The translations under genes were made by a program, and so were the position numbers. A stretch of 64,000 bases of DNA from a virus (lineage: Duplodnaviria; Caudoviricetes), in the IMG/VR virus record IMGVR_UViG_3300049141_000098, positions 1 through 64,000 of that record; one strand, written 5' to 3'. Shown here one piece after another: positions 590 to 52,879 of the stretch (position 1 is its first letter; the number at the start of each line of letters is the position of its first letter). Below the pieces are notes generated by a model. The model saw nothing but the letters and a program-made list of their open reading frames with translations, was not told where the DNA came from and did no database searches.

Positions 590-1159
590 ATGGCCCCTCT
601 CAACAGGCGAACCGCTCTTGACCCGCGCTGGGCCTGGCATCAGCGCTCGGTCCCGATCGGCCACATGAATGCAGCGGTCGAAATCTTCCGCAGGCCCGGA
701 CAGGGCAGCGACTATGGATTCGACCCGGCGACCGGCGGCCTGACGATTCCTGACGGCCAAGGTGGGGAAACGTTCCCTCAGTTGACTCTGCTGTACCGGG
801 GATGCGCTCGCGTTGTAAACAACAAGGACTGGCGCGCGAGGGTCAGAACTCAGCGCGGCGACATGGGCACCGATCATGCCATTCGCGTGCAGGCACCCAT
901 TCGGCTGTGCCCCCCGGTTCACGCCAATGACCTGATCAGGGCGTTCGTGCCGGAGAAGAGTGATCCGGAACTCGGCCACCTCAGGCTGGGTGACCCAGAG
1001 CTGACGCATTATCTCTTCCATGTGCGTAACCCCCTGATGTCTTCGGACGCCTGGTTGCGCAACCTCCTGTGCGACGTGGATGCGGCGCACCCTCAGACTC
1101 TGCCGCCGCCGTACACGATGGAGCCGATCACCTTTCGCAACAATGTGACGGGTCCCTAA
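590..1159 (+). CDS. Putative head-to-tail stopper (actinophage DUF6093-like)
   Basis: Position before neck and terminator genes; beta-rich 'LLYRGCARV...IRVQAP' pattern; ATG at 590 follows the previous stop. Confidence 0.55.
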   Translation: MAPLNRRTALDPRWAWHQRSVPIGHMNAAVEIFRRPGQGSDYGFDPATGGLTIPDGQGGETFPQLTLLYRGCARVVNNKDWRARVRTQRGDMGTDHAIRVQAPIRLCPPVHANDLIRAFVPEKSDPELGHLRLGDPELTHYLFHVRNPLMSSDAWLRNLLCDVDAAHPQTLPPPYTMEPITFRNNVTGP

Positions 1160-1176: not shown

Positions 1177-2079
1177 GTGGGCCTGAAGATTGCCCTCATA
1201 AGCCGAGACAATGGCGTCGGCCTGTCGCTGGATGTTGAGCTTCTGACCGAACTGTTCGGTTCTGCGGGCCATGAAGTGACATTTCACGATTGGCGAGATT
1301 CGTCAATGCCGCATGCGGACATCGCCTTTCATTTGGAACTCGTGAGTAGAACCCTCGCGCAACAGGCCGACCGGAACATCGGCATGCTCAACCTGGAGTG
1401 GTACCCCACGGAGTGGCTGAAGTTCCTTCCTGCTTTCGACCAGATCTGGGCCAAGAGTGAGTACGCTCACAAGTTTTGCCGACAGCGGGGTGCCCGGAAT
1501 GTTCACCTCACCGGCTTTTTGGGGCGCGACCGCTTCGATCCGACGATCAAGCGAGAAGCAAAATGTCTTCACCTGCGTGGCAAATCGCAGATGAAAGGTA
1601 CTGAGGAGGTCGTGGCAGCCTGGCGACTCAAGCCTGACTTGCCTCCACTAACGATCGTCTCGAAGGATCCAGTGCATGCACCGGACTACGTGACGGTCGT
1701 GAACTCCCCTACGGATGCCGAGCTGAGCCGACTGCTGAACTCGCACCAGATCCACTTGTGTCCCTCCATCGCTGAAGGTTGGGGACACTACATCACCGAG
1801 GGCATGTCGGTCGGTGCGACGGTCATCACTACCGACGCCTCGCCGATGAACGAGCACATCCGTCCGGAGTGGGGCTACTTGCTGGGAATCGCGAAGACTG
1901 GGACGCATCACCAGGCCGTACAAACCCATACGAGCCCTAGCATGATCATCGAGGCAGTGGAGCGTGCAGTGGCACTTGGCCCGAGGCGTCGTCAGGGCGT
2001 AGGCCAGAAGGCCCGAGCGCACTTCCTGCGGCGCAACAGCGCCTTCCGCAGTACGGCCCTGAGATTGGTGGAGCAGTGA
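1177..2079 (+). CDS. GT-B fold glycosyltransferase (GT4-like)
   Basis: C-terminal GT4 signature 'HLCPSIAEGWGHYITEGMSVGATVITTDASPMNE'; GTG start at 1177. Confidence 0.85.
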   Translation: MGLKIALISRDNGVGLSLDVELLTELFGSAGHEVTFHDWRDSSMPHADIAFHLELVSRTLAQQADRNIGMLNLEWYPTEWLKFLPAFDQIWAKSEYAHKFCRQRGARNVHLTGFLGRDRFDPTIKREAKCLHLRGKSQMKGTEEVVAAWRLKPDLPPLTIVSKDPVHAPDYVTVVNSPTDAELSRLLNSHQIHLCPSIAEGWGHYITEGMSVGATVITTDASPMNEHIRPEWGYLLGIAKTGTHHQAVQTHTSPSMIIEAVERAVALGPRRRQGVGQKARAHFLRRNSAFRSTALRLVEQ

Positions 2080-2924
2080 AGCACACGGTTCTGATTCCAG
2101 CGTGGCGCAGGCCCGACATGCTGCACGCCTGTCTGTCCCGGCTGGAGCTGGCGGCAACGGAGGACGTTTCGCTCGTCGTCAGTCTCGATCGAGGCAGCGA
2201 TCCAGGGTGCAGGACCGTTGCAGAAACCTTTTCCCGGCGCTTTCCGTCGATCTACCTGCGAGAGATGTACGAACACCCATTCCGAGGAAATTCTTGCAAC
2301 GTCATATCGGGCATTAAGGATTGCCTGAAGATGGGAGGTGACCTCCTCCATGTCGTTGAGGAGGACGTCCTCGTGGCGCGGGGCTACTTCGAGTTCCACG
2401 AGGCCATGCACAAAGTGGCGCCGACCGCCTTCGCCGTGAGCGCCTGCCGGAACCAGAACCAGATCCGGCCGGTGGACCAGGCCGCCTACCTGCACCCCTC
2501 GTATCAGTCCCTTGGCGTCTCCATGAGGGCGGAGGTCGCGGAGCGGGTCATCGTCCATGACACACCGCTGTACTACGGAAACATGGTGGGTTACTGCTCG
2601 AAGGTTTTCACCAGCAGCATCATTCCGTCAGGACACGCGGAGCAGGATGGCCTGATCAATCGCATCCGGGAACTGGCCTCTGGGCGCACCGTGTACACGA
2701 ACCGCCCTCGGGCTTTCCATGCTGGATTTCACGGCTACAACCGGCCCGGTACGCGGCTGACTGGCGGGACTGTAGCCGAGCGAGCTGCCCACATTCTGGC
2801 GATGACGTCACAAGAAATGAATGCGCTTGCCGGGGACCTGAAGGATCATGAGGTAATCGACCTGGAGGAATGCCTGTCTGTCGAGCCGGAGCGGGATGCT
2901 CTGAGCGCAGCACTTCGGGTATAG
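2076..2924 (+). CDS. GT-A fold glycosyltransferase
   Basis: N-terminal 'VLIPAWRRPD' strand and 'HVVEEDV' (DxD-like) motif; GTGA overlap with the upstream GT; paralog at 39530-40429. Confidence 0.75.
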   Translation: MKHTVLIPAWRRPDMLHACLSRLELAATEDVSLVVSLDRGSDPGCRTVAETFSRRFPSIYLREMYEHPFRGNSCNVISGIKDCLKMGGDLLHVVEEDVLVARGYFEFHEAMHKVAPTAFAVSACRNQNQIRPVDQAAYLHPSYQSLGVSMRAEVAERVIVHDTPLYYGNMVGYCSKVFTSSIIPSGHAEQDGLINRIRELASGRTVYTNRPRAFHAGFHGYNRPGTRLTGGTVAERAAHILAMTSQEMNALAGDLKDHEVIDLEECLSVEPERDALSAALRV

Positions 2925-2939: not shown

Positions 2940-3353
2940 ATGGCCCACATCGGGATAAAGTACAACTATAGGTTCGGCGGCGCCCAGAGGTACTACGGCG
3001 GCGGAACGCCTTCTGGCGCATTCGACATCGGACTGTCGGCATTCGTCGTCGACCACCTCAACAAGTCACGTCAGCGCCTTGTGCTCGACATGTCCAACTC
3101 CCGGCGCCGAGGTGAGGCGCTGGTACGGGCGAAGTCCCGCGTCGACACTGGCCGCATGCAGTCTTCGGTCCGGGGGACGGGTGACTTCGGTACCGACATC
3201 CTGAAGATCTCCTTCGGCTGGGAGCACAACGACCCCTTCTATGCCCCCTTCCAGGAGTTCGGTACCCGGACCGGTATCACGCCGATGATGGCCGTCCTCG
3301 ACGCCTTCAACTCTGTCACCGCCGAACTCTCGGCACGCCTCGGAGGCCGGTGA
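2940..3353 (+). CDS. HK97 gp10-like neck/tail-completion protein
   Basis: 'SRVDTGRMQSS' and 'YAPFQEFGT' motifs typical of the HK97-gp10 family. Confidence 0.8.
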   Translation: MAHIGIKYNYRFGGAQRYYGGGTPSGAFDIGLSAFVVDHLNKSRQRLVLDMSNSRRRGEALVRAKSRVDTGRMQSSVRGTGDFGTDILKISFGWEHNDPFYAPFQEFGTRTGITPMMAVLDAFNSVTAELSARLGGR

Positions 3354-3835
3354 TGGTCTCCGTCCTGGACTGGCAGCTCGACATCTACCGGCGCATCGAC
3401 ACCGGGTTGCCGAATACTCCTGTGCACCTGGAGGGCCTCGGGGAGAGCACCGACATCACGCCAGATCCGTCCGGGTTCTATAAGCCGTCGGTCATCCTGT
3501 GGTTCGGTCAGGCTTTCGACCTCTCCGGGTTCGGCGGCCGTCTCACCGTCACCGACCTCTGCGGTTTGGGCGGCAGCGGGGAGACGACGAAGCAAGCCGC
3601 GTTCATCACGCAGCTCGTCGCCCCCTCCGGCCTCTCTTTGCTTCAGCTCGGCCAGGCGGTACGAGATTTGGTCGAGGGGTACGCCCCGTTGGGCCAGGGG
3701 GAGCTGAGCGAAGCGGGGTCAGGAACAGTCCGGGATCCATACCCTGTAGGTATCGGCGACACTCTGCGGTTCTACCTGGCGATCGGCTACAAGGGCACCC
3801 TGAACACGAGCCCGTACAGCGAAGTGGGTTCCTGA
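3350..3835 (+). CDS. Tail terminator protein
   Basis: Follows the gp10-like gene with GTGA coupling; size and position fit a terminator. Confidence 0.6.
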   Translation: MMVSVLDWQLDIYRRIDTGLPNTPVHLEGLGESTDITPDPSGFYKPSVILWFGQAFDLSGFGGRLTVTDLCGLGGSGETTKQAAFITQLVAPSGLSLLQLGQAVRDLVEGYAPLGQGELSEAGSGTVRDPYPVGIGDTLRFYLAIGYKGTLNTSPYSEVGS

Positions 3836-3944
3836 TCGGTCGTCCGGGATGATGGGTTCAAGCCAGAGAGAGTGCCAGTGCGCCAGGTTTCCATGGGAGT
3901 GCAACTTCGGCCCCGGTGCGCGCCCTTGTGCCGCAAGTGGCAAG

Positions 3945-3950
3945 TAGAAT
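3945..3950 (+). promoter_or_regulatory. -10 box TAGAAT of a probable leaderless transcript for the MurG-like gene
   Basis: TAGAAT lies 7 nt before the GTG at 3958; no RBS visible. Confidence 0.55.
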
Positions 3951-3957
3951 ACCGAGA

Positions 3958-5133
3958 GTGATCACTACAGCCCCCCTCCCCCGCTCGCTTCGCCTGGCCG
4001 TCACTGGCGGAGGCACGGGCGGCCACACTTATCCGGCCCTGACCGTGATCCGTGTCCTGCGCGATCGACTCGCGGAGACGGGGGGGGCGCTAGATGTCCT
4101 GTGGGTAGGGTCGGAGGACGGGCTTGAGGCGAAGGTCGCCGCCTCGGAAGGAATCGCCTTCGCCCCGGTGGCCACAGGCAAAATCCGTCGGTCCAGCAAC
4201 CCCTTGAAACTGGCCAGCCCGGCGAACGTGCGCGACATGGCCCGGGTGCCTCTGGGGGTCGCGCAGGCGCGGAAAGCCATCTCGGATTTTCAGCCGGATG
4301 TCGTTCTCGCGACGGGCGGTTATGTGGCCGTACCTGCTGGCCTCGCAGCACGCATGTGTCGTCGCCCCTTGGTGTTGCATGAACAGACGGTGCGTCTGGG
4401 TCTGGCCAATCGCAAGCTCGCGAGTTCGGCAACCCTGATCGCTCTCTCCTCGGAGTCCTCCCTGGGCCTGCTCCCCCAGGCAATGCGCAGCCTTGGGGTA
4501 GTGACCGGCAATCCGATCCGGTCCGAGATCTTGTCCGGCCAGGCCGACAGGGCGGTTGCGTCTTTGGGTTTGCACGGCTTCGACCGGAGTCTCCCCACGG
4601 TGTACGTCACGGGAGGGGCGCAGGGGTCACGGCAGATCAATGCGGTGGTCAGCGATTCGTTGCCGTGGATTCTCCAGCGGGCTAACGTCATCCACCAGTG
4701 CGGCCCAGGCAACGTCGAGGCCATGCGTACTGGCGCCGGGCGCCTGTCTGGCGATCTGGTTGGCAGGTATCACCTGACGGACTTCATCGGCCCTGAACTG
4801 CCGGATGTTCTGGCGCTCTGCGACGTGATGATCTCGCGGAGCGGAGCGGGAACGCTGGCTGAGGTGACCGCTCTGGGTAAGGCCGCCCTGTTCATTCCTC
4901 TCGCCACGGCAGCGGGGAGCGAGCAGGCCCACAATGCCCGCCACCTGGTGGACGCAGGTGCAGCTGCGGCCTTGTTGGACGAGGTCACACCTGCGAGCCT
5001 GCGCAAGGCCCTGGAGCCGCTCCTGACGGACCCTGAAGCCCGGCAAGGTCTTGCGGCGCGGGCGCGCACGCATGGGCGCCCTGACGCGGCAGACAGGCTC
5101 GCTGACGTAGTCCTGTCTGCCGTGGCCAGTTGA
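3958..5133 (+). CDS. MurG-like GT28 glycosyltransferase (paralog outside a dcw cluster)
   Basis: 'GGGTGGHTYP', 'ATGGYVAVP', 'HEQT', 'TGNPIR', 'GGAQGS', 'SRSGAGT' and 'EQAHNA' G-loops and motifs of the MurG family. Confidence 0.9.
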   Translation: MITTAPLPRSLRLAVTGGGTGGHTYPALTVIRVLRDRLAETGGALDVLWVGSEDGLEAKVAASEGIAFAPVATGKIRRSSNPLKLASPANVRDMARVPLGVAQARKAISDFQPDVVLATGGYVAVPAGLAARMCRRPLVLHEQTVRLGLANRKLASSATLIALSSESSLGLLPQAMRSLGVVTGNPIRSEILSGQADRAVASLGLHGFDRSLPTVYVTGGAQGSRQINAVVSDSLPWILQRANVIHQCGPGNVEAMRTGAGRLSGDLVGRYHLTDFIGPELPDVLALCDVMISRSGAGTLAEVTALGKAALFIPLATAAGSEQAHNARHLVDAGAAAALLDEVTPASLRKALEPLLTDPEARQGLAARARTHGRPDAADRLADVVLSAVAS

Positions 5134-5139
5134 GGCAGT

Positions 5140-6288
5140 TCAGGGGCTTGTGCCCAAGGCAGCCCGTGTCGACTTGAGGGCACGTTCGAGAGACGTCACC
5201 ACGTGGTCGATGTCCGTCTTGGTTAGATGCTGATGGAACGGTAGAGTCAGGATTTCCGTGGCAACCTGCTCAGTGGCGGGCATACTTCGCCTCCAGGGTG
5301 CGAACGCTGCCTGAAGATGGTTGGGCGGGTAGTGAACACCTACGCCAACACCCTGAGACCGCAAATGCGCGAATACCGCATCCCGCCGACTCACCCGGAC
5401 CTGACAGAGATGCGGCACGGAGCGGTCTGCATCGACATCTATGAGCGTCACGCCGTCCAGCGGCTCAAGGGCAGACCGGTAAGCGCGCCACAGGTCGCGG
5501 CGTGCGCGCTCTGTGGTCTCGAAGTGGTCGAGCTGCGCAAGTCCGATGGCGGCGTTGATGCCGGAGAGCTGGTAGCGCAGCCCGAAGGTCTCCACGTGAT
5601 AGGTGGTGATATTCGCCCGTTCGGCCTGAGACTGGACAACTCCGAGAAGACGGAGTCGTCGCAGGGTGTCGGCCTCTTCACTGGACCGAGGGATCACCAT
5701 GCCGCCCTGACCGCATGTCAGGGTCTTGATCGGGCCAAAGGAGAAGCAGGTCAGGTCACCCGTCGCCCCAACTTTGCGGGCGCCGTTACGGGAGCCGAAG
5801 GCGTGCGCGGCATCCTCGATAACGGCGATGTTCCGGTCGGACAGCTCTCTGCGTACGCCGGAGAAGTCGATGGCCCGGCCGCCGAAGAGAACGGGCATCA
5901 CCGCGCGGGTGTGTTCGGTGACGGCCCCCATGATGAGCCGGTCTGTCACACACAGCGTGGCTGGGTCGACGTCCACGAAGACCGGGGTGGCGCCGACGGC
6001 CAGAATCGCCTGGATGGTCGCACAGAACGTCATGCTCGGAACGATCACCTCGTCACCAGATCCAATACCTGTAGCGACAAGGGCCAGATGGAGGGCGGCC
6101 GTGCCGGACGCGACGGCCACGGCGTCAGGGACGCCGAGGAATTCGGCGACACGGCGTTCGAATTCCTCGGTGACTTCGCTGTGCCCGTACTGTCCGGAAT
6201 CCAGCACCCGGGCTACGGCCGCCGCCTCCTCTCCGTAGAGGAACGGGCTGGCGTTGCGCCGGGCGTCCGGCCTCGATGACTCGGTCAC
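5140..6288 (-). CDS. DegT/DnrJ/EryC1/StrS PLP-dependent sugar aminotransferase
   Basis: 'ASGTAALHLAL', 'IEDAAHAFG' and 'CFSFGPIKTLTCGQGG' (PLP lysine). Confidence 0.92.
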   Translation of the reverse strand: MTESSRPDARRNASPFLYGEEAAAVARVLDSGQYGHSEVTEEFERRVAEFLGVPDAVAVASGTAALHLALVATGIGSGDEVIVPSMTFCATIQAILAVGATPVFVDVDPATLCVTDRLIMGAVTEHTRAVMPVLFGGRAIDFSGVRRELSDRNIAVIEDAAHAFGSRNGARKVGATGDLTCFSFGPIKTLTCGQGGMVIPRSSEEADTLRRLRLLGVVQSQAERANITTYHVETFGLRYQLSGINAAIGLAQLDHFETTERARRDLWRAYRSALEPLDGVTLIDVDADRSVPHLCQVRVSRRDAVFAHLRSQGVGVGVHYPPNHLQAAFAPWRRSMPATEQVATEILTLPFHQHLTKTDIDHVVTSLERALKSTRAALGTSP

Positions 6289-7526
6289 GACTCCCCCTCG
6301 CTGACGTCGTTGATGGGACGGACGATTGGCTGGATCAATGCACTTGCCGCCTCTATGGCCGACGACACGTCCGTCACCGTCGATCCACTGGCGAGGAGCA
6401 TGCCGATCTTGTGGCCGGATTGGTCATGTGGGCGTACGCGGTCACCTGGCTCGGCGTACAGCTCGACCTCGGTGATCCCGGGAATGCTGCGGGCCTCGGC
6501 GACGCCCTTCCATGCGACCAACTCGCCGTCCACGGCGAGCGGTGACCCGATCAGCTCGACCGCCGCATGCGCTTTGCGCGTTGGCACCAGGTAGTCCTCG
6601 AACGGCTCGCCCAGTGCGAGTGCAACCAGGGCGCCCACAACGTTCACGCCGTAGGCGGCTGCATGCAGTCGCGGAATGCTGTCACCGCTGAGGCGCGGAT
6701 TGGCCTCGATGATGCGCCCTTGACCATCCGGCCCAAGGACGAGGTCGAAGTTCGCAGGTCCGTTGGTGATGCCGAGCGTGCGGCACAGCCGCTCGGCGGT
6801 CGCCTCAAGGTGGCCGTGCTCCACCGGAGACAGTTGCGCTGTGCCGATCCGCTTGACGACAAACCCCCCGGCGACGAGTTCCTGATCTTTGATGCAGGTC
6901 ATCACCGACGCGCCGTTCAGTAGGAAAAGATCGATGGTCAACTGGCGGCCCCGTACGAACTCCTCGGCCATCACGGTCCGGGAGGGCGAGTAGGTGCGGG
7001 CGTGGGTGACGGCGGCGGGCAGGCCACCCACGCTGGTGACGCACGTGACGCCCTTGCTTCCCGACCCGTCTACGGGTTTGACCATGAGTGGGAAGCGCAG
7101 CCGAGCCGCTTTCGCGACGACCTTCTCCGGATCGCCTGATGCGACCCATCCGTAGCTGGCGACGCCGCACGATGCGGCAATCTCATGGAAGGCGGCCTTG
7201 TCGAGGGCGGCAACGAGCGCCTTCTCGGGGTACACGTAGGGAGTGCCGTACCGCAGACTCAGGGTGCGCCAACTGGCCAGTGCGGCATCACTCGCGCCGA
7301 CCACGATTCCGGCGGGGCGCACGTCGCCCAGCGCGTCGGCAATGGCATCGGCGTCCCGGGTGGAGATCTGGAGAACCGCGTCGGCGAACGGGAACGCGGG
7401 GGCATCCGCCCGCATGTCCACCGCGATGGCCGGGATGCCGCGACGATGCGCCTCCTGGTACAGCGGAATGTGCTCTTCCGATGCGCCGAGCACGAGCAGT
7501 CCGTTGTTCGGCAACTGGTCAGACAT
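6285..7526 (-). CDS. ATP-grasp fold ligase
   Basis: 'VKPVDGSGSKGV', 'EEFVRG' and 'IEANPRLSG'; start overlaps the rfbB stop and end overlaps the DegT start (ATGA). Confidence 0.85.
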   Translation of the reverse strand: MSDQLPNNGLLVLGASEEHIPLYQEAHRRGIPAIAVDMRADAPAFPFADAVLQISTRDADAIADALGDVRPAGIVVGASDAALASWRTLSLRYGTPYVYPEKALVAALDKAAFHEIAASCGVASYGWVASGDPEKVVAKAARLRFPLMVKPVDGSGSKGVTCVTSVGGLPAAVTHARTYSPSRTVMAEEFVRGRQLTIDLFLLNGASVMTCIKDQELVAGGFVVKRIGTAQLSPVEHGHLEATAERLCRTLGITNGPANFDLVLGPDGQGRIIEANPRLSGDSIPRLHAAAYGVNVVGALVALALGEPFEDYLVPTRKAHAAVELIGSPLAVDGELVAWKGVAEARSIPGITEVELYAEPGDRVRPHDQSGHKIGMLLASGSTVTDVSSAIEAASALIQPIVRPINDVSEGES

Positions 7527-8541
7527 GCTGCGGCTCCCGAGGAGTATTGGTGGTGACGCGTGGACGGGGGGTGGCAGCGCCGTGCTGCGGCAGCGCCCAC
7601 CGGCCGGGACTGCGGCGGTACCACTCGACGGTCTCAGCCAGGGCTTCACGGAAGTCGCGCTGGGGCTTGTAGCCGAGCTGGCCGGATATCTTGTCCCAGG
7701 TCATCGCGTACCTGTAATCGTTGGCCTGCCGGTCCGGAACGTACGTGACCAGATCCCAATCAGCGCTGCACAGGTGCAGCAGCTCTCCGGTCAGCTCCTT
7801 GCTCGTCAGGTCGGTGCCGCCACCGATGTTGTAGACCTCGCCGGGCGTGCCTTCGCGCAGGACCAGTTCAATACCGGCGCAGTTGTCGCTGACGTGGAGC
7901 CAATTGCGCACGTGCTGCCCCCGGTCGTGCAGGGTCACCAGTTCGCCGCGAAGGAGGCGGGTCGTGAACAGCGGAATGATCTTCTCTGGATACTGGTGGG
8001 ATCCATAGTTGTTGGAGGACCGGGTAACGCAGACCGGCACGCCGTGGGTGTGCCAGTAGCTGAGAGCCACCAGGTCGCTAGCCGCCTTCGACGCCGCATA
8101 CGGGACGCCTGGACGCAGAGGGAATTCCTCTGTCGCGGCACCGACAGAGAGGGATCCGTAGACCTCATCGGTGGAGACGTGCACAAAACGCTGGACGCCG
8201 TGACGCGTGGCGGCATCCAGGAGGGTCTGGGTGCCGAGGACGTTGGTGTGGACGAAGTCGGCGGCTCCGCTGATCGAGCGGTCGACGTGGGACTCGGCAG
8301 CGAAGTGCACGATCGCGTCGTGTCGGCTGGCAAGGTCGTCCACCAGGGCCTTGTCGTTGATGCTGCCCTCGACGAACGTCAGCTTCGGATCGAGGAGTAC
8401 GTCACCGAGGTTCGCCAGGCTCCCTGCATAGGTGAGGGCGTCGAGCACGGTAATCGTGGCGATGTCGCCGGACTTCACTATGCGCTTGACGAAGTGCGAT
8501 CCGATGAAACCAGCCCCACCCGTCACCAGTACGTTGTCCAT
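7519..8541 (-). CDS. rfbB: dTDP-glucose 4,6-dehydratase (RmlB/RfbB)
   Basis: 'VTGGAGFIGS', 'HFAAESHVDRSI', 'STDEVYG', 'YAASK' and 'NNYGSHQYPEKIIP'. Confidence 0.93.
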   Translation of the reverse strand: MDNVLVTGGAGFIGSHFVKRIVKSGDIATITVLDALTYAGSLANLGDVLLDPKLTFVEGSINDKALVDDLASRHDAIVHFAAESHVDRSISGAADFVHTNVLGTQTLLDAATRHGVQRFVHVSTDEVYGSLSVGAATEEFPLRPGVPYAASKAASDLVALSYWHTHGVPVCVTRSSNNYGSHQYPEKIIPLFTTRLLRGELVTLHDRGQHVRNWLHVSDNCAGIELVLREGTPGEVYNIGGGTDLTSKELTGELLHLCSADWDLVTYVPDRQANDYRYAMTWDKISGQLGYKPQRDFREALAETVEWYRRSPGRWALPQHGAATPRPRVTTNTPREPQHV

Positions 8542-8836
8542 AATGTCTCCGATGTGAATGCGAACAGTTCGAAAGTTCGCAAAGAAGGCCGCTCGACATA
8601 TCTGCGGGCAGTGCGCCCTGCGCTGCGACTGTGGATCCCTTTACCGGGGCCCTGTCGAAGGCGGCAGACAGCATCCTGACCGCCCGTCAGTCCGTCTGAG
8701 AAGGGCACCTCCACTGCCTCGCGCTGCCTCGATTTGCCTCCCTTTGCCTCTCGATGCGTCCTTCTTGACCCGTCAGTACCACCGTGTTGGACACTGGCGG
8801 TATCGGATCGGAGTAGAAAAGGGCGGGAGGCGCGGT

Positions 8837-10201
8837 ATGTCCACATCCATGGAAGAGGACTTGATTCAGCGCGTACTCGATCTGTTGGGCTGCCGAGATC
8901 ACGCCACGTTCTTAAGGCGCCTGGCGGAATGTCACAACGCCCTCGGTTACGGGCACATGGCGACCAGACCAGAGAAGATCAGCCGCTGGAAGCGGGGAGT
9001 GCGCCCCGACCGGTACGCCGAGATGGCCCTGGCCTCCATGCTCGGCGTACCGGTGGAGCAAGTCCGAACGTTGGGCTGGCCAGACTGGCTGCGCGTTGCC
9101 CTGGACGCCGATCAGATACTGCTGAATGCCCCTTGGACTCCGGCCGGTGCCCTCGAAGTGCTGGACCATCTAGGAAAGCCGGACGGTATGGATCGACGAT
9201 CAGCAATTCTCAGCGGCGGCGCTCTGACCGCAGCCATCCTCACGAACTGGACCTCGGCGTCTGCGGCCACTGCGGTACATGACCCGAGCCGACCACGCGT
9301 CACCGACCGCAGCGCCGCACTGATCGACGCCCGCCTTGCGGCGTTGCGCCAGCTCGACGACGAGATCGGATCCACTGAGACGTACGCACTGGCGCGCGCG
9401 GAGCGGGCGTCCATCGTCACGGTGCTGCGCACTCGGTCCTTCAGCGAGGCCGTTACGCGGCGGCTCTTCTCGGCTGCCGCAGAAGCGTCACGGATATGCG
9501 GATGGTGCGCCTTCGACTCCGGGAGTATGGCTGCGGCCGAGCATCACTACATGGGGGCTGCGAGGGCCGCCGCGACTGCGCAGGACTCCGTAGTCACGGC
9601 CAACCTGTTCAACTTCTGGGCCATGGTCAGGTACAGCGACGGGGACACCTCCGGGGCTCTGGATTACGCCGAAGAGGCCCTCAGGCAGGCACGGCGCACT
9701 GGCTCCCCCCGGCTGATCGCCCTGACCCACGCCCGAATTTCCCGCGCTCACGCCAAGGCGGGGGATCTCCTGTCCAGCCGACGGGCCGAGGAGGCCGCCT
9801 TCACGGCCTTCGAGGCGGCCGGTGACCCGGGCGACGAGCCGGGCTGTGTCTACTGGGTCAGCAGGGAGGAACTGCACAGTTGGGCGGCGAGCAATGCGTC
9901 CGACCTCAACGACCCGCGCCGGGCACTGTCTCACTACGGCGCCATCTCAGCTCTTCATCGCGCGGCGGCGAATCAGGGCACCTATCCGCGCTCGCGTGCT
10001 CTGCGCCTGGTACGTGAAGCGAAGACTCACCTGTCCCTGCGGGATGTCGATGCCGCGCTGCACGCGGCCGATCAGGCCGTTCAGACGATGGGGGGTGTGA
10101 CCTCTCCTCGGGGCGCGACCATACTGACAGGCCTGCGCAGCAAGCTTCAAGCGCATGGGCAACTTCCCGGAGTGCGCGGATTCCTTGAGCGAACTGCCTG
10201 A
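8837..10201 (+). CDS. Streptomyces-type transcriptional regulator (N-terminal XRE-like HTH, C-terminal TPR-like helices); contains an in-frame TTA
   Basis: 'KISRWKRGVRPD...ALASMLGV' HTH, 'MDRRSAILSGG' linker and alanine-rich helical repeats; RBS GGGAGG; divergent from rfbB. Confidence 0.75.
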   Translation: MSTSMEEDLIQRVLDLLGCRDHATFLRRLAECHNALGYGHMATRPEKISRWKRGVRPDRYAEMALASMLGVPVEQVRTLGWPDWLRVALDADQILLNAPWTPAGALEVLDHLGKPDGMDRRSAILSGGALTAAILTNWTSASAATAVHDPSRPRVTDRSAALIDARLAALRQLDDEIGSTETYALARAERASIVTVLRTRSFSEAVTRRLFSAAAEASRICGWCAFDSGSMAAAEHHYMGAARAAATAQDSVVTANLFNFWAMVRYSDGDTSGALDYAEEALRQARRTGSPRLIALTHARISRAHAKAGDLLSSRRAEEAAFTAFEAAGDPGDEPGCVYWVSREELHSWAASNASDLNDPRRALSHYGAISALHRAAANQGTYPRSRALRLVREAKTHLSLRDVDAALHAADQAVQTMGGVTSPRGATILTGLRSKLQAHGQLPGVRGFLERTA

Positions 10202-10390
10202 AAGCAAACTCGTTCCGACCCTGCGTGAGACGCCCTCCGGAGTCCCGATGGGGGCGAAGCGGATTGACTCCGAAAAGGGCAACGACAGGAATGGGTAAGG
10301 AAGTAGACTTTAAACTCGAATAAACTTGAAGTTGTGCAGGGGCTATGCCGCACTAAACGGCAGGTTCTGCACCGCTCTTGACGGAAGCAG

Positions 10391-10434
10391 AAAGCCCCCA
10401 TTCGGTGATGCACAGTCACCCGAATGGGGGCTTT
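10391..10434. terminator. Bidirectional terminator-like hairpin
   Basis: Perfect 14-bp inverted repeat AAAGCCCCCATTCG / CGAATGGGGGCTTT. Confidence 0.75.
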
Positions 10435-10489: not shown

Positions 10490-11056
10490 ATGGCAGCAGT
10501 GAAGAGTTTGCCACCCTCCTTGACCATCTGGTGGGTGGATGAGTCGGATCAGACGGCCCTCGGTTACGAGGGAACGTACGGCGAGGGATTCGCTGATATC
10601 GACCACCCGACCGCCGCCGAGATCAACGCGGGCCTGAACATCTCGTGCGCCCTGACCACCGACATCACGCTCGGCTGGACGGACCGCGACACGGATGACA
10701 CCCGTGGTCTCTGCGACGACTCGAACGTGGCGACGCCAACAGCCAAGAATTACGAAGGCCAGTTGAACGTCTTCCTCGACCGCGACCCGAACAAGCTCGA
10801 CCCGAGCATCTACAACGACGTGATGCGGCTTTTCAAGAAGCCGCTGAGGTCGGGCTATCTCGTGCAGCGGATCTCAAAGCACCCGGTTCGGGATCCGCAG
10901 GCGTCGAACACCGACTGGGTCACCGTCTACAAGTTCCTCAGTGGCGACCCCAATGTCATCAACGACGCCACCGCCCCGCTCCAGCTCCAGCCGACGATGT
11001 ACCCCCAGGGGCAGTCGTCGGATGGCCTGGTGCAGGTCGGCAGCACTGGTAGCTGA
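10490..11056 (+). CDS. Major tail (tube) protein
   Basis: 'PTAAEINAGLNISCAL...DTRGLCD' actinophage tail-tube pattern; GGAGG RBS; precedes chaperone and tape measure. Confidence 0.85.
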   Translation: MAAVKSLPPSLTIWWVDESDQTALGYEGTYGEGFADIDHPTAAEINAGLNISCALTTDITLGWTDRDTDDTRGLCDDSNVATPTAKNYEGQLNVFLDRDPNKLDPSIYNDVMRLFKKPLRSGYLVQRISKHPVRDPQASNTDWVTVYKFLSGDPNVINDATAPLQLQPTMYPQGQSSDGLVQVGSTGS

Positions 11057-22375: not shown

Positions 22376-22566
22376 CGGACCTTTCGACGGTTTCTTCGGA
22401 CGACGTGATCGAGTCGTATCGCAAGCAGCTTTCCGACGCCCATCATCTGCTCGCCATAACGGAAGCGCGCCTTGCGAAAGCGCTCAAGATGCTGAACGAA
22501 CGCCCTTCGGAGACACCACGGCCATCGCCGCTAGAGATAGACTTCCCCGTTGAACAGGGAGCCTGA
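22372..22566 (+). CDS. Small coiled-coil hypothetical protein
   Basis: GTGA coupling with the upstream stop; GGAGGA RBS. Confidence 0.55.
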   Translation: MTDLSTVSSDDVIESYRKQLSDAHHLLAITEARLAKALKMLNERPSETPRPSPLEIDFPVEQGA

Positions 22567-22567
22567 A

Positions 22568-23029
22568 GTGGACGCCAGGGAAATTCCGCCCGATGGAGTA
22601 TCAGCCGAATTCTCCGTAGACATACCCATCCCATCCGGGCTGGAGTACATCAACGGTATTCAGATTCGATTCGCGTTCGAGACGGACATCCCCGCCCAGT
22701 TCTTTCCTGTGGCGACACTGGACGGAGAAGACATTCCGCTCGATGAGTATGCCCGTGACGTTCTGAGTCTCACCCGGGTTGGACAACTTCCCGAGAGCTT
22801 CTCGGGCACCGTATCCCTCAGCGTGGCCATCAACAGAGAAGGCCACCTAGCCCCCGGCAACTCGGTAACCATCTACGCCTGGGGTGTGCAGATCCTCAAG
22901 AATGCAGATCTTCCTGGTCCAGCGACCGTCAGTAATCCGACCACCCTGGACGACGCCGTCGAAGTCGGAATTGTCGAAGTCATGACCTGGCCCGAGTGGT
23001 ACAGACTTACCGGACGGGACGGCTCGTAG
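22568..23029 (+). CDS. Hypothetical beta-rich protein, last gene of the late operon
   Basis: GTG just after the previous stop; converges on and overlaps the RuvC-like gene. Confidence 0.55.
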   Translation: MDAREIPPDGVSAEFSVDIPIPSGLEYINGIQIRFAFETDIPAQFFPVATLDGEDIPLDEYARDVLSLTRVGQLPESFSGTVSLSVAINREGHLAPGNSVTIYAWGVQILKNADLPGPATVSNPTTLDDAVEVGIVEVMTWPEWYRLTGRDGS

Positions 23030-32293: not shown

Positions 32294-32303
32294 GGCCTAG
32301 GCC
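32294..32303. promoter_or_regulatory. GGCCTAGGCC palindromic operator candidate (recT promoter region)
   Basis: Exact palindrome overlapping the Cas4-like stop codon; - strand TACTGT -10 box at 32271-32276. Confidence 0.6.
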
Positions 32304-34144
32304 GTTCTGCGACCGAACTTTGGGCGCTTCACACAGACCCAGCACTCAGGGTCGGGAGACAGTTCCGTCGCTCGCCCCGAGCGCACAACCTCAGCCAGGT
32401 GAGAGGCCCTGCGAATGACCGCCTCGGCGACGTCCGGACGGTAGGGGCAAGACGCCACCCACAGGTCGGTGATGTAGTTGGAGTCGCGAGGGATGAACAC
32501 CAGCACGGCGTAGTCCGCTTGACGACCCATCTTCCGCAGGCCGTACAGGTAGAGCATGGTCTGCCCCATGTACTCGGGCGGCACGCCGCCGGAGTTCGCC
32601 TCAGACCGGGACAGCAGCGACGTGAGCCGGGCGAGATCGACGTCGCCAGGCTTCAGCAGACCAGCCCGGTCCCTGATCTTGAGGTCATCGAGTTCGGTCC
32701 GCTCTTGTGCTGTCAGACCGAGGGTGTAGGCGTTGGGACCGGCTTGCTTCTTGTACTTCTCGATCTTCGCCTTGTCGCTGGTGTTGTGAGTCGGGATCAT
32801 CCCTTCGGTGCACAGGTATGTGCTGTCAGGTGAGTCCACCTTGATGCACTGCGTGGGCACCGTCAGAGTCGGTTCAACTGACTTGATGACACGCTGCCGG
32901 GCTCGCACCTCGAAACGCACGTCAACCAGGTCCGCCTTGACTGGGCTCAGGAACGGATTCAGTCCGTGCACCGGGGTGAAGGAAACCATGTAGGCCGTCA
33001 CCTCCTTCCCGAACCCCGTGCGTCGCACTTCGTTCACCACGGGGCGCTGACCAAGGCTTATGGCCAGCTCGTACACCCCGAGCGACATCCGCTTGTCAAC
33101 AGACTCGAACACCGCCTTCCGGCGCCCCTTGTTCCAGGTGCCGTCCGTGTCCATGAGGCCGCGCAGCAGGTCGAGTCGCTGCTGAATGGAGCCCCGGAAG
33201 TACCGGGGCGGAATGTGCTTGTTGTGCAGGAGGTCGCAGTCGGCCAAAAGCCCTCGCAGCCCATGGATGGTGCGGGCGCGACTGGTCTGATTGCCACTAC
33301 CCTGCGGCTTGCCGATCTGGAAGCCGCGCCCTCGGATCAACTCGAACAGGCCCTCGTCCGGCTTGCAGATCCTGGCCTCCGAGGCGTCGCCATCGCCGAG
33401 CCAGCACCCCAGGACATACGGGTCGATCGGAAGGTCGGCGTCCGGGAGTTCCAGGGCTCCGGCGTTCATCACTCGATGACGGCTTTGGCCGTTGCCCAGC
33501 TTGAGGGTTCGTCGAATCTCCTCAGTGCTGAGAACCCTCTCGGTAGCGCGGCTCCCCTCTCCGGAGGTGACGGCCCACAGGTGTTCGTCGTCGGCGACGG
33601 CCTGCTTGCCATCCTCGAACGTGATTCGGTAGCAGGTGCGGTGGTGGACTTCGGACTTGCCGAGCACCTTGCAGGGGCGCCCCTGAGAGTCGAACAGTTC
33701 GTCGCCGACCTGGATTTCACCCATGGTGGTCCAGCCGGTTGGCGTGGGCAGCTTGGTGTCGAGCGCCAAGCCCTTCCAGTCCACAACTGTGCGCTTGCGC
33801 GGAAGGAAGACGTCGGTATGCCCTTCCACCACGCCAAGGCCAGGGATGTCGCCGATGCGAACAGTGATCTCCACCTCGGCGTGCGGATAGATGCGGGGCA
33901 GCTCCCGCTCCAGCTTCTCGTGCACCGCCGTGCCGAGCCACGCTTTGAGGCTGAAGTCCTCGCTGACCTGTCCGCCCATGCCGAACGACGAGGCGATCTT
34001 CTTGGCCACGCAGACGTCGCACGTGTTCGCCAGGTCACTGGGGCCGCACGCCTTCTGCTGGTCGCGCCGAGAAGGATTTCTGATGACGGAAACCGCCAAT
34101 CCTTCGACGAAACTGCGGAGAATATTCTGTTCTTCTGCACTCAT
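32297..34144 (-). CDS. Cas4/RecB-like PD-(D/E)xK exonuclease containing an intein
   Basis: 'CDVC', 'GTAVHEKLE', 'GHTDVF...VVDWK|TS', 'QTMLYLYG' and C-terminal 'CWVC'. Confidence 0.85.
   Translation of the reverse strand: MSAEEQNILRSFVEGLAVSVIRNPSRRDQQKACGPSDLANTCDVCVAKKIASSFGMGGQVSEDFSLKAWLGTAVHEKLERELPRIYPHAEVEITVRIGDIPGLGVVEGHTDVFLPRKRTVVDWKGLALDTKLPTPTGWTTMGEIQVGDELFDSQGRPCKVLGKSEVHHRTCYRITFEDGKQAVADDEHLWAVTSGEGSRATERVLSTEEIRRTLKLGNGQSRHRVMNAGALELPDADLPIDPYVLGCWLGDGDASEARICKPDEGLFELIRGRGFQIGKPQGSGNQTSRARTIHGLRGLLADCDLLHNKHIPPRYFRGSIQQRLDLLRGLMDTDGTWNKGRRKAVFESVDKRMSLGVYELAISLGQRPVVNEVRRTGFGKEVTAYMVSFTPVHGLNPFLSPVKADLVDVRFEVRARQRVIKSVEPTLTVPTQCIKVDSPDSTYLCTEGMIPTHNTSDKAKIEKYKKQAGPNAYTLGLTAQERTELDDLKIRDRAGLLKPGDVDLARLTSLLSRSEANSGGVPPEYMGQTMLYLYGLRKMGRQADYAVLVFIPRDSNYITDLWVASCPYRPDVAEAVIRRASHLAEVVRSGRATELSPDPECWVCVKRPKFGRRTA
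32783..33772 (-). mobile_element. Class 3 intein (330 aa) with LAGLIDADG homing endonuclease
   Basis: N-terminal 'GLALDTKLPTPTGWTTMG', block B 'ADDEHLW', 'LGCWLGDG' and 'LRGLMDTDG', block F 'PTQCIKV', C-terminal 'IPTHN/T'. Confidence 0.9.
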
Positions 34145-34860
34145 ATCGCAACTCTACACCGCGAGATAGCAGCGTCGACAGACATTCGCGCCACCTTCAG
34201 AAGGTCATCCCAGGTCCCGTGGAGGCTCGCTTCCTGGTACTGGGCGAGCCGAGCCAGGGAGGCGGCCGACCCGGCATATCTGGTCAAACGGGTCGGCTTC
34301 TCATGCCACAGGTGGTACAGCGGGGCTTGCCCCCGCCACGGGGCTCCATGAAGACCGTTCAGGGCCATCGCCCACGCCTCATCCTCCTGCCCCCACCCCA
34401 CGAAAGCCGGATCCAAGGGGCAGTTGAGATATGCGTCTCGCCTGAGGACCGTAATGCCACCGCCCTCGAACCCTTTATAGGGGCTCTGGTCGAGCCAAAT
34501 CGTGCGGCCCGTGAGGGATCCTGGCGACGTTCCATCGTAGATCGCCTGGGTCGCATCCCGGCTCATCCGGTACACCTTCAGGTGGGGCATAGCCCAGTCC
34601 GAACCCTGCTCGACGGCCTGCACCGCCTGCTGGACCCCCGGAGTGATGCTGTCTGCATCCGCGATCACGACCACGGGTTCCGTGGTCTCCGCCAGGGCTT
34701 TGGTAACTGCACTGGCCTTGCACCAGCGCCCCTCGCAGAGTCCGAGCTGAATGTTGGCGCCTTCCAGGTTCTCGGCGTACCAGGATCGCGTGTACTCCAG
34801 CGCCTTCGCCCGCCATGGCGTCTCATTACCAAAAGGTATGAGTACAGCGATACGTTTCAT
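34141..34860 (-). CDS. GT-A glycosyltransferase (GT2/GT7-like)
   Basis: 'IAVLIPF', 'VIADADS' DxD motif, 'GGGITVLRR...FVGWGQEDEAW' galactosyltransferase-type C-terminus. Confidence 0.85.
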   Translation of the reverse strand: MKRIAVLIPFGNETPWRAKALEYTRSWYAENLEGANIQLGLCEGRWCKASAVTKALAETTEPVVVIADADSITPGVQQAVQAVEQGSDWAMPHLKVYRMSRDATQAIYDGTSPGSLTGRTIWLDQSPYKGFEGGGITVLRRDAYLNCPLDPAFVGWGQEDEAWAMALNGLHGAPWRGQAPLYHLWHEKPTRLTRYAGSAASLARLAQYQEASLHGTWDDLLKVARMSVDAAISRCRVAI

Positions 34861-34927
34861 GGGCCTATCCTGGCATGGAAACGGGCTCACGCTCAGGGGA
34901 TGGCGTGGGCCCGTTTCCATGCTCCGG

Positions 34928-35623
34928 TCAGGACGGGATGTCCTCCAGCTCGAAGACCTCGTCATCACTGGCAGGCGCCTTCTCGTCGAGCACCTTCAGC
35001 CGGTCCTCGTCGGTCGCCTCACGAACCTCCAGCTTGAGGCCGTGGCTCTTCATGCATGCCTTGAGCTTCTCGGGCTCGTTCTTGAAGACGAGGCGGGCCG
35101 TGGTTGCGTCGGGCTTCGAGACGGAGATCCGATGCAGGTCTGCGGTGCTCAGGTTCTGGATCGCCTTCCCCTCGTCGAACCGGTCGTTGGTGCTGTAGAC
35201 CAGGGCCAAAGAGCCGTGAAGTTCCAGGCCGGGAGACTTGCGACGCCCCTTGGCGACAGCCTTCGCCCGTTCGATGAGCGCCTTCGTCTCCGAGAGGATC
35301 TTCTGCTGCTCCGCGATCAGCTCGGCCAGCTCGGCCTCTGACAGCTTGTCGAGGTTGTCCAGCAGCTCCATGCGGTCGATCTCCGTCTTCATCGCGTGGG
35401 GGTGGTCACCCGGCAGAGACCGCACCGGGATGTACCCCGAGGTGTAGGGCCGACCATCGCTGGCCAGGTAGCTCTCGTGGAAAGAAGCGGCACGAACACG
35501 ACGAGGCGGACCATACCCGTCGTCGGTGACAGTGACGATCGTGAAGCTGGCGGGGCCTTCGTTGCGGGTCTCGATGAGGTTGCTGGTGCGGACGTTCACG
35601 TAACGGGTGCCAGGCACAGGCAC
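34928..35623 (-). CDS. Hypothetical protein with a central coiled coil
   Basis: AAGGAG RBS; strong GC3. Confidence 0.6.
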   Translation of the reverse strand: MPVPGTRYVNVRTSNLIETRNEGPASFTIVTVTDDGYGPPRRVRAASFHESYLASDGRPYTSGYIPVRSLPGDHPHAMKTEIDRMELLDNLDKLSEAELAELIAEQQKILSETKALIERAKAVAKGRRKSPGLELHGSLALVYSTNDRFDEGKAIQNLSTADLHRISVSKPDATTARLVFKNEPEKLKACMKSHGLKLEVREATDEDRLKVLDEKAPASDDEVFELEDIPS

Positions 35624-39466: not shown

Positions 39467-39529
39467 CAGGCTTTACCCCACTGATACACCCCCAGATCTA
39501 CCTCCCATTTGGTCCGTAGAGTGGGAAAC

Positions 39530-40429
39530 ATGGAGATCGTAAACGTCATCGCCTGGCGCAGACCCGACTTCCTCCTGGCCATGCTGATGCGGCTCGCCAA
39601 AGCCGACACGCCGGGGATCCACTATCGGGTCAACGTCGACCACGACCCGGACCCGCTGGTGCCGGAGGTGGCCGACCGGTTCTCCTGGAACGTCGGCCCC
39701 AAGCGGGTCGAAGTGGTGTACCGAGGCCCGTGCGAGGACCAGGGGCCTACACGGAACATGCTCCAGGCGCTGCATGAATCCATGAACTACGGCGCCGACT
39801 TGATCCACTTGATCGAAGACGACATCTTCGTCTCCACCGGGTACTTCACGTACCACCGCAGCGCCCACGAGCTGGCTCCGGACGCCTTCTGTGTGACCGC
39901 ATGCAAGCCGGACCTGGACGCCACCCCGACGAGTCCGCAGAGCTTCCGTCAGGCCACCCTGCGGCCCTTTGCCCCAACGGTCGGGACCAGCTTCCGGCCC
40001 GAGCGCCTACGGCAGATCCTGGACTACCTGCCCATGTCCTATCTGGAGGACCGGGTCGGGCATTTGCGCCGGACTTTCCCCCAGCACCCCTGCGCCCCGC
40101 ACCTGTGGAGCGGAATCGACGGGGCCATGGGGCGGGTGCGCCATCGCCTCGACAAGCTCACGGTCTTCCCCGAGATCGGACGCGCCTATCACGCAGGGTT
40201 CATCGGGGCGGGATGTGAGGGCGAGGCCTGCAACGGAGACACCGCGCGGGACGGGTACAACAACGGCCCGCACCGCCACGGCGCCGGACTGACCGGGACG
40301 GTGGCGGAGCGGGCCGCTCAACTGCTGAAGATGCGCGCCGAGGACTTTAACGCGCGAGCCGGGATCCGGGATCACGTCTGGTTCGACCCGGACGTGGACT
40401 ACGGACCAGTGACCGCGATCGCCCCCTAG
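39530..40429 (+). CDS. GT-A glycosyltransferase, paralog of 2076-2924
   Basis: 'VIAWRRPDFL', 'HLIEDDIFV', 'RAYHAGF' and 'LTGTVAERAA' match the paralog; TAGAGT -10 box 7 nt before the ATG. Confidence 0.8.
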   Translation: MEIVNVIAWRRPDFLLAMLMRLAKADTPGIHYRVNVDHDPDPLVPEVADRFSWNVGPKRVEVVYRGPCEDQGPTRNMLQALHESMNYGADLIHLIEDDIFVSTGYFTYHRSAHELAPDAFCVTACKPDLDATPTSPQSFRQATLRPFAPTVGTSFRPERLRQILDYLPMSYLEDRVGHLRRTFPQHPCAPHLWSGIDGAMGRVRHRLDKLTVFPEIGRAYHAGFIGAGCEGEACNGDTARDGYNNGPHRHGAGLTGTVAERAAQLLKMRAEDFNARAGIRDHVWFDPDVDYGPVTAIAP

Positions 40430-52273: not shown

Positions 52274-52879
52274 CTACAGGCCAACTCGCGTGGCCCCGTA
52301 GTAGTCAGGCATGTAGTGGACCTTGTCGACTCGGATGAGGGTGCCGGTCCGGGGGGCGTGCAGCATCTTCCCGTCGCCTACATAGATGCCCACATGGTGA
52401 ATCGACCGCCAGTTGCCCTTCTGTCCGAAGAACACCAGGTCGCCCGGTTGCAGCTCGTTCCAAGCGGGGTGGACGTCGGTCGTCTTGTACTGGTCATTGG
52501 CCACGCGAGGCAGCCTGACGCCAGCTTTCGCATACGCCGCCTGGGTCAGCCCTGAGCAGTCGAACCGGCCGCCCTGGGCCGACGAACCCGTGCCGCCCCA
52601 GAGGTAGGGCACGCCAATCTTCGTCTTGGCGTATGCGATGGCCACGGCTGCGGCATCCCCCGAGCGGGAGCGGGAGACGCTTGAGGCGTCCTCCTCCTGC
52701 TGATCGGCTTCCTGCCGCCGCCTCTCCGGGGAGTACCAGTTGACCTCCTCGATCGCCGGGTTGTCGTTGGCCTTAGCGTTCGAGATGGGTGCGGCTTTGA
52801 GGGCCGCGCAGGACGTCATGATGGGCGTGAGTAGGGCCGCCGAAGCGACTGCGGCGATCACGCGCGGGGCTCGATTCAC
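52274..52879 (-). CDS. NlpC/P60 peptidoglycan endopeptidase, predicted lipoprotein
   Basis: 'PYLWGG...FDCSGL', 'PGDLVFF', 'HHVGIYVG..MLHAP'; signal peptide ending 'MTSC'. Confidence 0.9.
   Translation of the reverse strand: MNRAPRVIAAVASAALLTPIMTSCAALKAAPISNAKANDNPAIEEVNWYSPERRRQEADQQEEDASSVSRSRSGDAAAVAIAYAKTKIGVPYLWGGTGSSAQGGRFDCSGLTQAAYAKAGVRLPRVANDQYKTTDVHPAWNELQPGDLVFFGQKGNWRSIHHVGIYVGDGKMLHAPRTGTLIRVDKVHYMPDYYGATRVGL

Follow-up and report, generated by a model that had tools for sequence, protein, structure and literature searches.

A coupled pair of glycosyltransferase genes among the connector genes of a Streptomyces phage relative: a candidate virion glycosylation system

Why does a tailed phage carry two glycosyltransferase (GT) genes between the genes of its head-tail connector, and what do their products modify? 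The question is raised by positions 1177-2924 of a 64,000-nucleotide stretch (the window), with which a complete virus record of 259,646 bp begins (IMGVR_UViG_3300049141_000098). To our knowledge, glycosylation of phage virions has been demonstrated for only a few mycobacteriophages. Here, sequence comparison and structure prediction suggest that the pair probably glycosylates the virus particle, the conserved serine ends of several particle proteins being the candidate acceptors. Coordinates are those of the window unless given as genome positions or preceded by the handle of another contig; the features are collected in Table 1.

The gene pair and its place among the connector genes

The initial annotation described a GT4-like gene and a GT-A gene joined by a GTGA overlap, and direct reading of the bases, motifs and predicted folds confirm this description. 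The GTG start of the first gene lies eight bases 3' of a Shine-Dalgarno-like run, GGAAGGGGTGGGGGG, the stop of the upstream gene being at 1157-1159. The bases GTGA at 2076-2079 are common to the TGA stop of the first gene and the GTG start of the second, an overlap by which the GT-A gene is predicted to be translationally coupled to the GT-B gene. Taken as the open reading frame (ORF) 1069-2079, the first gene matches Glycos_transf_1 with 29.4 bits (cut-off 26.4) and Glyco_trans_1_4 with 27.9 bits (cut-off 27), both marginal; in precomputed annotations, all 120 homologues among the matches listed carry these two domains. Its protein displays the GT4 EX7E motif in the C-terminal Rossmann domain (E200-G-W-G-H-Y-I-T-E208), and E200, G201, W202, H204 and E208 do not vary among 78 sequences. 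The AlphaFold2 model (predicted local distance difference test, pLDDT, 94.7; predicted template-modelling score, pTM, 0.90) is a compact GT-B fold of two Rossmann domains, the N-terminal one shorter than usual, the whole protein counting 300 residues. Foldseek aligns it at probability 1.00 with PimA, BshA, MshA and GlgM (query template-modelling score, TM, 0.7-0.78), other top matches being a methylmannose-polysaccharide mannosyltransferase, a chlorovirus GT and GtfA. The family comprises 311 homologue clusters, mostly on phage-sized contigs.

The second gene does not reach the Pfam gathering score of the GT2 families (Glyco_tranf_2_3, 19 bits for a cut-off of 27; Glycos_transf_2, 11.3 bits). 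AlphaFold2 nevertheless predicts a confident GT-A fold (pLDDT 97.3), and D38, N75, E95-x-D97 (VEEDV) and H215 are invariant in 69 sequences. Foldseek matches are found at probability 1.00 with GnT-I, POMGnT1, SpsA and TarP (TM about 0.5-0.57), with GnT-II and the collagen galactosyltransferase ColGalT1 further among the top ones. With 114 homologue clusters, many on contigs of 50-250 kb, it appears from its sequence to be a divergent family of its own, encoded mostly on phage-sized contigs.

The pair had been placed between 'stopper' and 'neck' genes on the late strand, labels that are reasonable but come from weak matches. The DUF6093 protein is 77-83% identical to Quantum gp51 and metagenomic orthologues, and its neighbours in a protein language model are head-tail joining and head-closure families, a lead only. 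On the other side, orthologues of the tail-completion gene in relatives are 82-90% identical, and the language-model neighbours of the next protein (3350-3835) include several tail-terminator families; sequence searches of the Protein Data Bank (PDB) with the DUF6093 and terminator-like proteins returned nothing useful. A GTGA stop/start overlap at 3350-3353 also couples the tail-completion and terminator genes, and since the same overlap is present at 2076-2079, the two GT genes appear translationally embedded in the connector gene series. Genes for the tail tube, chaperone and tape measure follow the connector genes on the same strand. Between 1 and 12500, no terminator-like site was found on this strand, and a promoter scan gave no sigma-70-like sites, a negative that carries no information where the late operon of a phage is concerned.

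Among isolates, the nearest are the seven Streptomyces cluster BM phages Satis, JustBecause, Kradal, Quantum, EhyElimayoE, Kela and Frankenweenie. The gene order DUF6093, GT-B, GT-A, tail completion, terminator, tail tube was observed in all seven, in ten IMG/VR contigs and in four further metagenomic or assembly contigs. Whether the pair is conserved at this position in related phages had been put forward as a check, and it turned out to be exactly kept in 7/7 isolates and about 15 metagenomic relatives. The GTs are 60-87% identical across relatives, against 90-95% for the tail tube, and thus diverge faster than their structural neighbours. The pair is already annotated 'glycosyltransferase' in the records of BM phages, for example as Quantum gp52/gp53. 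A separate observation concerns the 251-kb relative G002, where the same operon contains extra DNA at three places (L009: 10897-11249, 12517-13465 and 13944-15210): some 350 bp separate GT-B from GT-A, some 950 bp follow the tail-completion gene ahead of the terminator gene, and some 1.3 kb precede the tail tube gene.

In distant relatives, whose GT-B is 46-50% identical (L019, L020 and L021), the order is GT-B, Methyltransf_24 methyltransferase, GT-A, and in two of the three another GT follows GT-A. The intervening methyltransferases are homologous (E 1e-23 to 4e-33) to an O-methyltransferase that the present phage encodes upstream of its terminase gene. Given this homology and the linked order in relatives, GT-B, GT-A and the methyltransferase have the appearance of a single ancestral module for building glycans. 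The core set common to relatives is composed of GT-B, GT-A, the GT at 34141, which resembles gp109 of mycobacteriophage Che8, and the Methyltransf_24 O-methyltransferase.

Serine-ending virion proteins and the probable target of the pair

As a guard against selective reading, the C-termini of all crude gene calls were compared with those of orthologues in two complete relatives (187 kb and, for G002, 251 kb). Only 4/115 comparable genes keep a terminal Ser in the three genomes; each of these ends in GS and belongs to the 16 virion-module genes (hypergeometric P = 2.6e-4). They encode the tail tube, the putative terminator, a small pre-capsid protein and the last tail-module protein. The tail tube ends in Ser in 17/17 orthologues read. 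The terminator ends SEVGS, and 13 of 14 orthologues retain this final GS though the preceding residues vary. The pre-capsid protein, of 161 residues and encoded between the protease and capsid genes, ends AATGS. Orthologues of the last tail-module protein retain their GS at only 36-38% identity, which argues for selection on the GS end itself. A fifth case, found by inspection, is the major capsid protein. In BM isolates it has 437 residues and the short end SGPSGS, and in the closest sub-lineage (GT-B at least 81% identical) 460-478 residues with mucin-like C-terminal tails of 25-45 residues rich in Ser, Thr and Gly.

The same ends were read directly in two mycobacteriophages, Che8 (capsid KTGS, tail tube SDGS) and Corndog (capsid LVGS, tail tube KGDS). 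Glycans at the C-termini of capsid and tail-tube subunits, added by phage GTs, are reported for some mycobacteriophages (Freeman et al. 2023, as cited in PMC12619734, PMC12363180 and PMC11600133). In the control phages L5, Bxb1 and TM4, capsid, tube and terminator proteins have no terminal Ser, and in Arthrobacter and Curtobacterium phages without these GTs, tail tubes assigned to the same Pfam family (n=4) have neither the tail nor the Ser. The restriction of the conserved terminal GS to the virion module, its presence in Che8 and Corndog and its absence from the controls together point to the virion as target.

We suppose that the two proteins would be cytoplasmic glycosylation enzymes, made late in infection along with the connector and tail proteins. 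They would act together with the third conserved GT (34141) and the TylF-like O-methyltransferase. Their products would be short, possibly methylated O-linked glycans on exposed C-terminal serines, in Gly-Ser ends or Ser/Thr-rich tails, with the major capsid, pre-capsid, tail tube, terminator and last tail-module proteins as candidate acceptors. As a guess, the GT4-type GT-B, a retaining enzyme, would start the chain and the GnT-I-like GT-A would extend it. The benefit could be, for example, shielding or an altered surface chemistry in soil. We infer the serine tails as acceptors, and likewise the order of the enzymes, the sugars used and the benefit. As for the initial claim that the GTs decorate the virion, it gains support from the kept position, the virion-restricted GS ends, their likeness to those of Che8 and Corndog and the controls without Ser; glycosylation itself we infer from these.

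Several observations weigh against virion glycosylation. Neither BLASTP nor hhalign detects homology of the pair to Che8 gp108-110 or Corndog gp36-38, and no match to GT25 (PF01755) was found in the genome. The terminator of L057 ends GL, two capsid tails end in Lys, and 10/353 crude gene calls of the genome end in GS; the control sets are also small. As to Che8, the exact acceptor residue is taken from secondary citations of Freeman et al. 2023. In the most distant relatives the GT cluster stands near the terminase gene, upstream of it in one case, and outside the tail operon. In the 94-kb phage of L019, the most distant of them, the Phage_TTP_16 and Phage_capsid profiles gave no match. Finally, the substrates of the Foldseek neighbours, for GT-B and GT-A alike, range from lipids and small molecules to teichoic acids and the glycans of glycoproteins, so that the acceptor cannot be identified from the folds.

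The pair might modify an envelope glycopolymer of the host late in infection (teichoic or teichulosonic acid, another cell-wall polysaccharide or a lipid-linked precursor), which could keep progeny from sticking to debris or exclude competing phages. The best structural neighbours of GT-B (PimA, methylmannose-polysaccharide mannosyltransferase, WaaG) would suit this role, as would the resemblance of GT-A to TarP/TarS and SpsA and the adjacent accessory cassette, in which a host-taken MurG paralogue accompanies sugar-nucleotide enzymes typical of cell-surface glycan loci. We nonetheless consider it unlikely: late co-transcription within the connector and tail operon of a lytic phage suits exclusion poorly, the secondary structure predicted by AlphaFold2 is that of ordinary globular GT domains in both proteins, and conservation of terminal GS on virion-module proteins alone would be left without explanation.

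It seems less probable still that the pair acts on a small molecule, for example by inactivating an anti-phage metabolite of the host, or on a non-virion protein, the Ser tails then serving assembly or solubility. Streptomyces hosts make many glycosylatable metabolites, and structural neighbours include the small-molecule GTs BshA, MshA, SenB, AvpGT and LmbT. Such a role would account neither for the strict linkage to connector genes over roughly 22 genomes nor for the cluster of GT-B, methyltransferase and GT-A, which is typical of glycan assembly. Glycosylation of phage DNA at a hypermodified base against restriction, as in T-even and other phages, would be in keeping with the frequent action of phage GTs on DNA (PMC12619734) and with the GT genes at 34141 and 39509 in the replication module, beside Cas4-like nuclease and DnaE genes, but is very improbable, as the genome has no ThyA-type hydroxymethylase for deoxycytidine or deoxyuridine monophosphate, the pair lies in the virion operon away from replication genes, and no DNA glucosyltransferase figures in the top 50 Foldseek PDB matches of either model (GT4-type GT-B, GnT-I-like GT-A).

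Other glycosyltransferases, the sugar cassette and the phage genome

Table 1. Coordinates and supporting evidence of the features discussed (window positions unless stated otherwise).
Feature	Position	Strand	Evidence or remark
DUF6093 connector-type gene, head-closure/'stopper'-like by context	590-1159	+	PF19586 59.8 bits; directly upstream of the pair
GT-B glycosyltransferase, GT4-type, 300 residues	1177-2079	+	Pfam, EX7E, AlphaFold2, Foldseek
GT-A fold glycosyltransferase, 282 residues	2076-2924	+	AlphaFold2, invariant residues, Foldseek; GTGA-coupled to GT-B
Tail-completion/Neck1-like gene	2940-3353	+	phrog_5 E 1.3e-4; HK97-gp10_like below cut-off
Putative tail terminator ending GS, candidate acceptor	3350-3835	+	Just before tail tube gene in relatives; language-model neighbours
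MurG-like GT28 gene, accessory	3958-5133	+	Glyco_transf_28 N- and C-terminal domains
DegT-family aminotransferase	5140-6288	-	DegT_DnrJ_EryC1 334.6 bits
ATP-grasp ligase	6285-7526	-	ATP-grasp and LAL_C2 domains
Deoxythymidine diphosphate (dTDP)-glucose 4,6-dehydratase	7519-8541	-	TIGR01181 369.5 bits, over cut-off
NsdA-family regulator, tetratricopeptide repeat (TPR)-like	8558-10201 (maximal ORF; start probably near 8840)	+	NF053720 254 bits, cut-off 75
Major tail (tube) protein ending VQVGSTGS, candidate acceptor	10490-11056	+	Phage_TTP_16 93.7 bits, phrog_2491
Last tail-module gene, 159 residues, candidate acceptor	22550-23029	+	End GRDGS, conserved terminal GS
GT-A homologous to Che8 gp109/Corndog gp37	34141-34968 (maximal ORF; likely start Met36, 34863)	-	hhalign, BLASTP
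GT-A gene paralogue beside DnaE polymerase gene	39509-40429	+	33% identity to 2076-2924, E 7e-42
TylF-like/Methyltransf_24 O-methyltransferase	genome 243381-243938		Upstream of terminase gene; PF13578 46.8 bits
Major capsid protein	genome 252766-254148 (L055:10766-12148)		Ser/Thr/Pro-rich tail ending TKGSNPKSS
Long-tailed capsid orthologues	L057:1-673; L064:1125-2561; L065:1667-3097; L066:1198-2598		Ser/Thr/Gly-rich tails

The three further GT genes that the initial annotation listed, at 3958, 34141 and 39530, do exist (Table 1), and no additional GT2, GT25 or GT4 gene was found elsewhere in the genome. Their suggested role in extending the same glycan can be upheld only in part: 34141 belongs to the core set, 3958 is an accessory MurG paralogue and 39530 is missing from the 187-kb relative. 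The family of 34141 aligns with gp109/gp37 at an hhalign probability of 94.3% (E 9.5e-8, 207 columns, full length), and pairwise BLASTP of the protein with a gp109-type protein gives E 1.4e-7. A tblastn search with it against all phages stopped short of mycobacteriophages, so that the link to gp109 rests on profile comparison. The gene lies in the replication module and is conserved in all BM isolates and both complete relatives. The paralogue at 39509 keeps every invariant residue of the GT-A family and is present in the 251-kb relative. A candidate sixth GT, at 52876-53640 (minus strand), was rejected since it contains an SLT lytic transglycosylase domain (37.9 bits); the 'glycosyltransferase' label of its BM orthologues, for example Quantum gp96, is by this domain likely a mis-annotation in public records.

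The product of 3958-5133 scores 215.7 bits with TIGR01133 (murG), below the equivalog cut-off of 250.25, and shares 73-77% identity with a MurG paralogue of Streptomyces chromosomes whose gene stands by itself, away from cell-wall gene clusters. By sequence it is a MurG-like protein, evidently host-derived, which falls outside the conserved glycosylation set. The gene is part of an inserted 6.3-kb cassette that separates the terminator gene from the tail tube gene. The dehydratase, ATP-grasp and DegT genes of this cassette form a minus-strand sugar-nucleotide operon (5140-8541), which is absent from the seven BM isolates and the ten IMG/VR relatives and present in L057. For lack of an RmlA-type nucleotidyltransferase gene, the dTDP-glucose from which the pathway starts would come from the host.

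The terminator/tail tube junction is a cargo hot spot (window 3836-10434; L057:10001-16226; L064:13358-18995; L066:12861-13697). In L057 it holds, as in the present phage, a MurG-like GT, DegT, ATP-grasp, dTDP-glucose dehydratase and an NsdA-like regulator. L064 carries a different sugar cassette, with a nucleoside diphosphate (NDP)-sugar dehydrogenase, a class-III aminotransferase and a regulator of the same family, besides one unknown gene; this regulator family adjoins the tail tube gene in both L057 and L064. One unknown gene of 278 codons occupies the junction of L066, and nothing that of L065 and the BM isolates. The idea that the cassette is unique to this genome was rejected on account of L057, and that of a strict co-variation of cassette and long capsid tail on account of L065 and L066, which are long-tailed without it.

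A broader proposal, which we hold as tentative and rather doubtful, is that a C-terminal Gly-Ser or Ser/Thr-rich tail would act in actinobacteriophages as a portable 'glycosylate me' tag, read by unrelated GT sets (GT2/GT25 in mycobacteriophages, GT4 plus GnT-I-like GT-A in this lineage) and marking at least five particle proteins of the lineage, the terminator/tube junction exchanging sugar cassettes that diversify the virion glycan in an O-antigen-like manner. The cassette of this phage and L057 may then be a dTDP-4-amino-4,6-dideoxyhexose/ATP-grasp/MurG-like set, and that of L064 an NDP-sugar dehydrogenase/aminotransferase set. If virion glycosylation is achieved here with unrelated enzymes, sugar-coating of the particle would be a convergent and probably widespread actinobacteriophage trait, and the terminal Gly-Ser a simple sequence marker predicting modified particle proteins. 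The prediction is directly testable, the relatives Satis, Quantum and Frankenweenie being in culture on Streptomyces lividans and S. scabiei. In mycobacteriophages, virion glycosylation blunts recognition by antibodies; for the role of the glycan in soil, where antibodies play no part, the variable cassettes next to the pair could serve as a natural series.

The 'actinomycete element' to which five GTs had been attributed is a complete virus record. It stems from a lytic phage related to the Streptomyces cluster BM phages and is no integrated element. The cluster BM isolates, with genomes of 184-200 kb, are lytic siphoviruses whose heads are prolate and giant (PMC6687918, PMC10652959). A GT gene copy of 87% identity is found on a 253-kb contig of a Streptomyces assembly, and the cargo genes share 73-77% identity with genes of Streptomyces chromosomes; together these indicate a Streptomyces host. 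The 'direct terminal repeat' of the record spans only 127 bp (genome 1-127 = 259520-259646) and looks like the assembler overlap of a circular assembly, the record start being therefore arbitrary; real terminal repeats measure about 1 kb in isolated relatives (PMC6687918). Terminase, portal, protease and capsid genes (genome 245,940-254,148) lie just upstream of the window start, and about 5 kb of small minus-strand genes separate this capsid block from the tail operon that opens the window.

At 32297-34144 (minus strand), a 615-codon ORF occupies the place of the 280-residue Cas4 exonuclease of Quantum; with its weak LAGLIDADG and homing-endonuclease matches and a short similarity to parts of the terminase, this gene may contain an intein. 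The terminase of this phage is itself a long protein (789 residues).

Comparison with known glycosylation systems

The closest functional parallel is found in Che8 gp108-110 and Corndog gp35-38 (Freeman et al. 2023, Cell Host Microbe 31:1216, through the citing papers PMC12363180, PMC12619734 and PMC11600133), each comprising three GTs and a TylF/Methyltransf_24 O-methyltransferase, to which the core complement described here corresponds. The GTs of Corndog sit inside the structural operon, as does the pair, and Che8 gp108 and Corndog gp35 are of the same family as the O-methyltransferase of this phage. Capsid and tail-tube proteins of both mycobacteriophages end in Gly/Asp-Ser, and a conserved terminal Ser is displayed by capsid and tube here too. 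The homology of the GT at 34141 to gp109/gp37 concerns an enzyme outside the pair. Two of the three GTs here have folds unrelated to the Che8/Corndog set (GT4-type GT-B and GnT-I-like GT-A), the GT-A family comparing with gp110/gp38 at an hhalign probability of 0.3%. Orthology of the pair with the mycobacteriophage enzymes was thus rejected, and because of this non-homology the analogy is functional and not one of family membership. The GT25-type enzyme, Che8 gp110/Corndog gp38, is reported as essential. Compared with Che8 and Corndog, the present phage is a 260-kb siphovirus relative with a giant prolate head, its host is Streptomyces, and the candidate acceptors extend beyond capsid and tube to the terminator, pre-capsid and last tail-module proteins. 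Another reading, not used as evidence, comes from Myrna, reported as glycosylated and poorly annotated: its gp98 (L058:376-921), of 181 residues and encoded just before the likely capsid gene, ends GGLAGGS, a resemblance to the pre-capsid protein of this lineage with its final AATGS.

Cluster BM phages encode the true orthologues, 60-70% identical, in the same position and with the same 4-base overlap, and their gp72 GT and gp14 O-methyltransferase are also common to this phage. The BM isolates differ by their smaller genomes (184-200 kb), lack of the sugar cassette and short capsid end, where a long Ser/Thr-rich tail is found here. Freeman and colleagues are said to have already noted, in 2023, putative GTs in some Streptomyces phages. 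The genome announcements of Satis/JustBecause and of Frankenweenie do not mention virion glycosylation.

Two systems outside these phages share part of the design. The O-GlcNAc transferase GtfA/GtfB (PDB 5e9t, 4pqg) is a cytoplasmic GT4-type GT-B that starts O-glycosylation of the Ser-rich segments of streptococcal serine-rich repeat adhesins, and it figures among the structural neighbours of the phage GT-B, at ranks 9 and 50. GtfA is larger, however (about 500 residues, with an extra domain), needs its GtfB partner, is 13-17% identical to GT-B and is not the best structural match.

The fibril gene clusters of Mimivirus (viosamine/rhamnose) combine a viral 4,6-dehydratase, a DegT-type aminotransferase and GTs in producing unusual amino-dideoxy sugars of the particle surface. 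Mimivirus is a eukaryotic virus with unrelated particle proteins, whereas the sugar cassette described here is accessory and exchangeable between relatives. What the present phage adds to these systems is evidence that a terminal Gly-Ser singles out a definite group of particle proteins in a phage lineage that is unrelated and uses different enzymes, together with exchangeable cassettes beside the pair.

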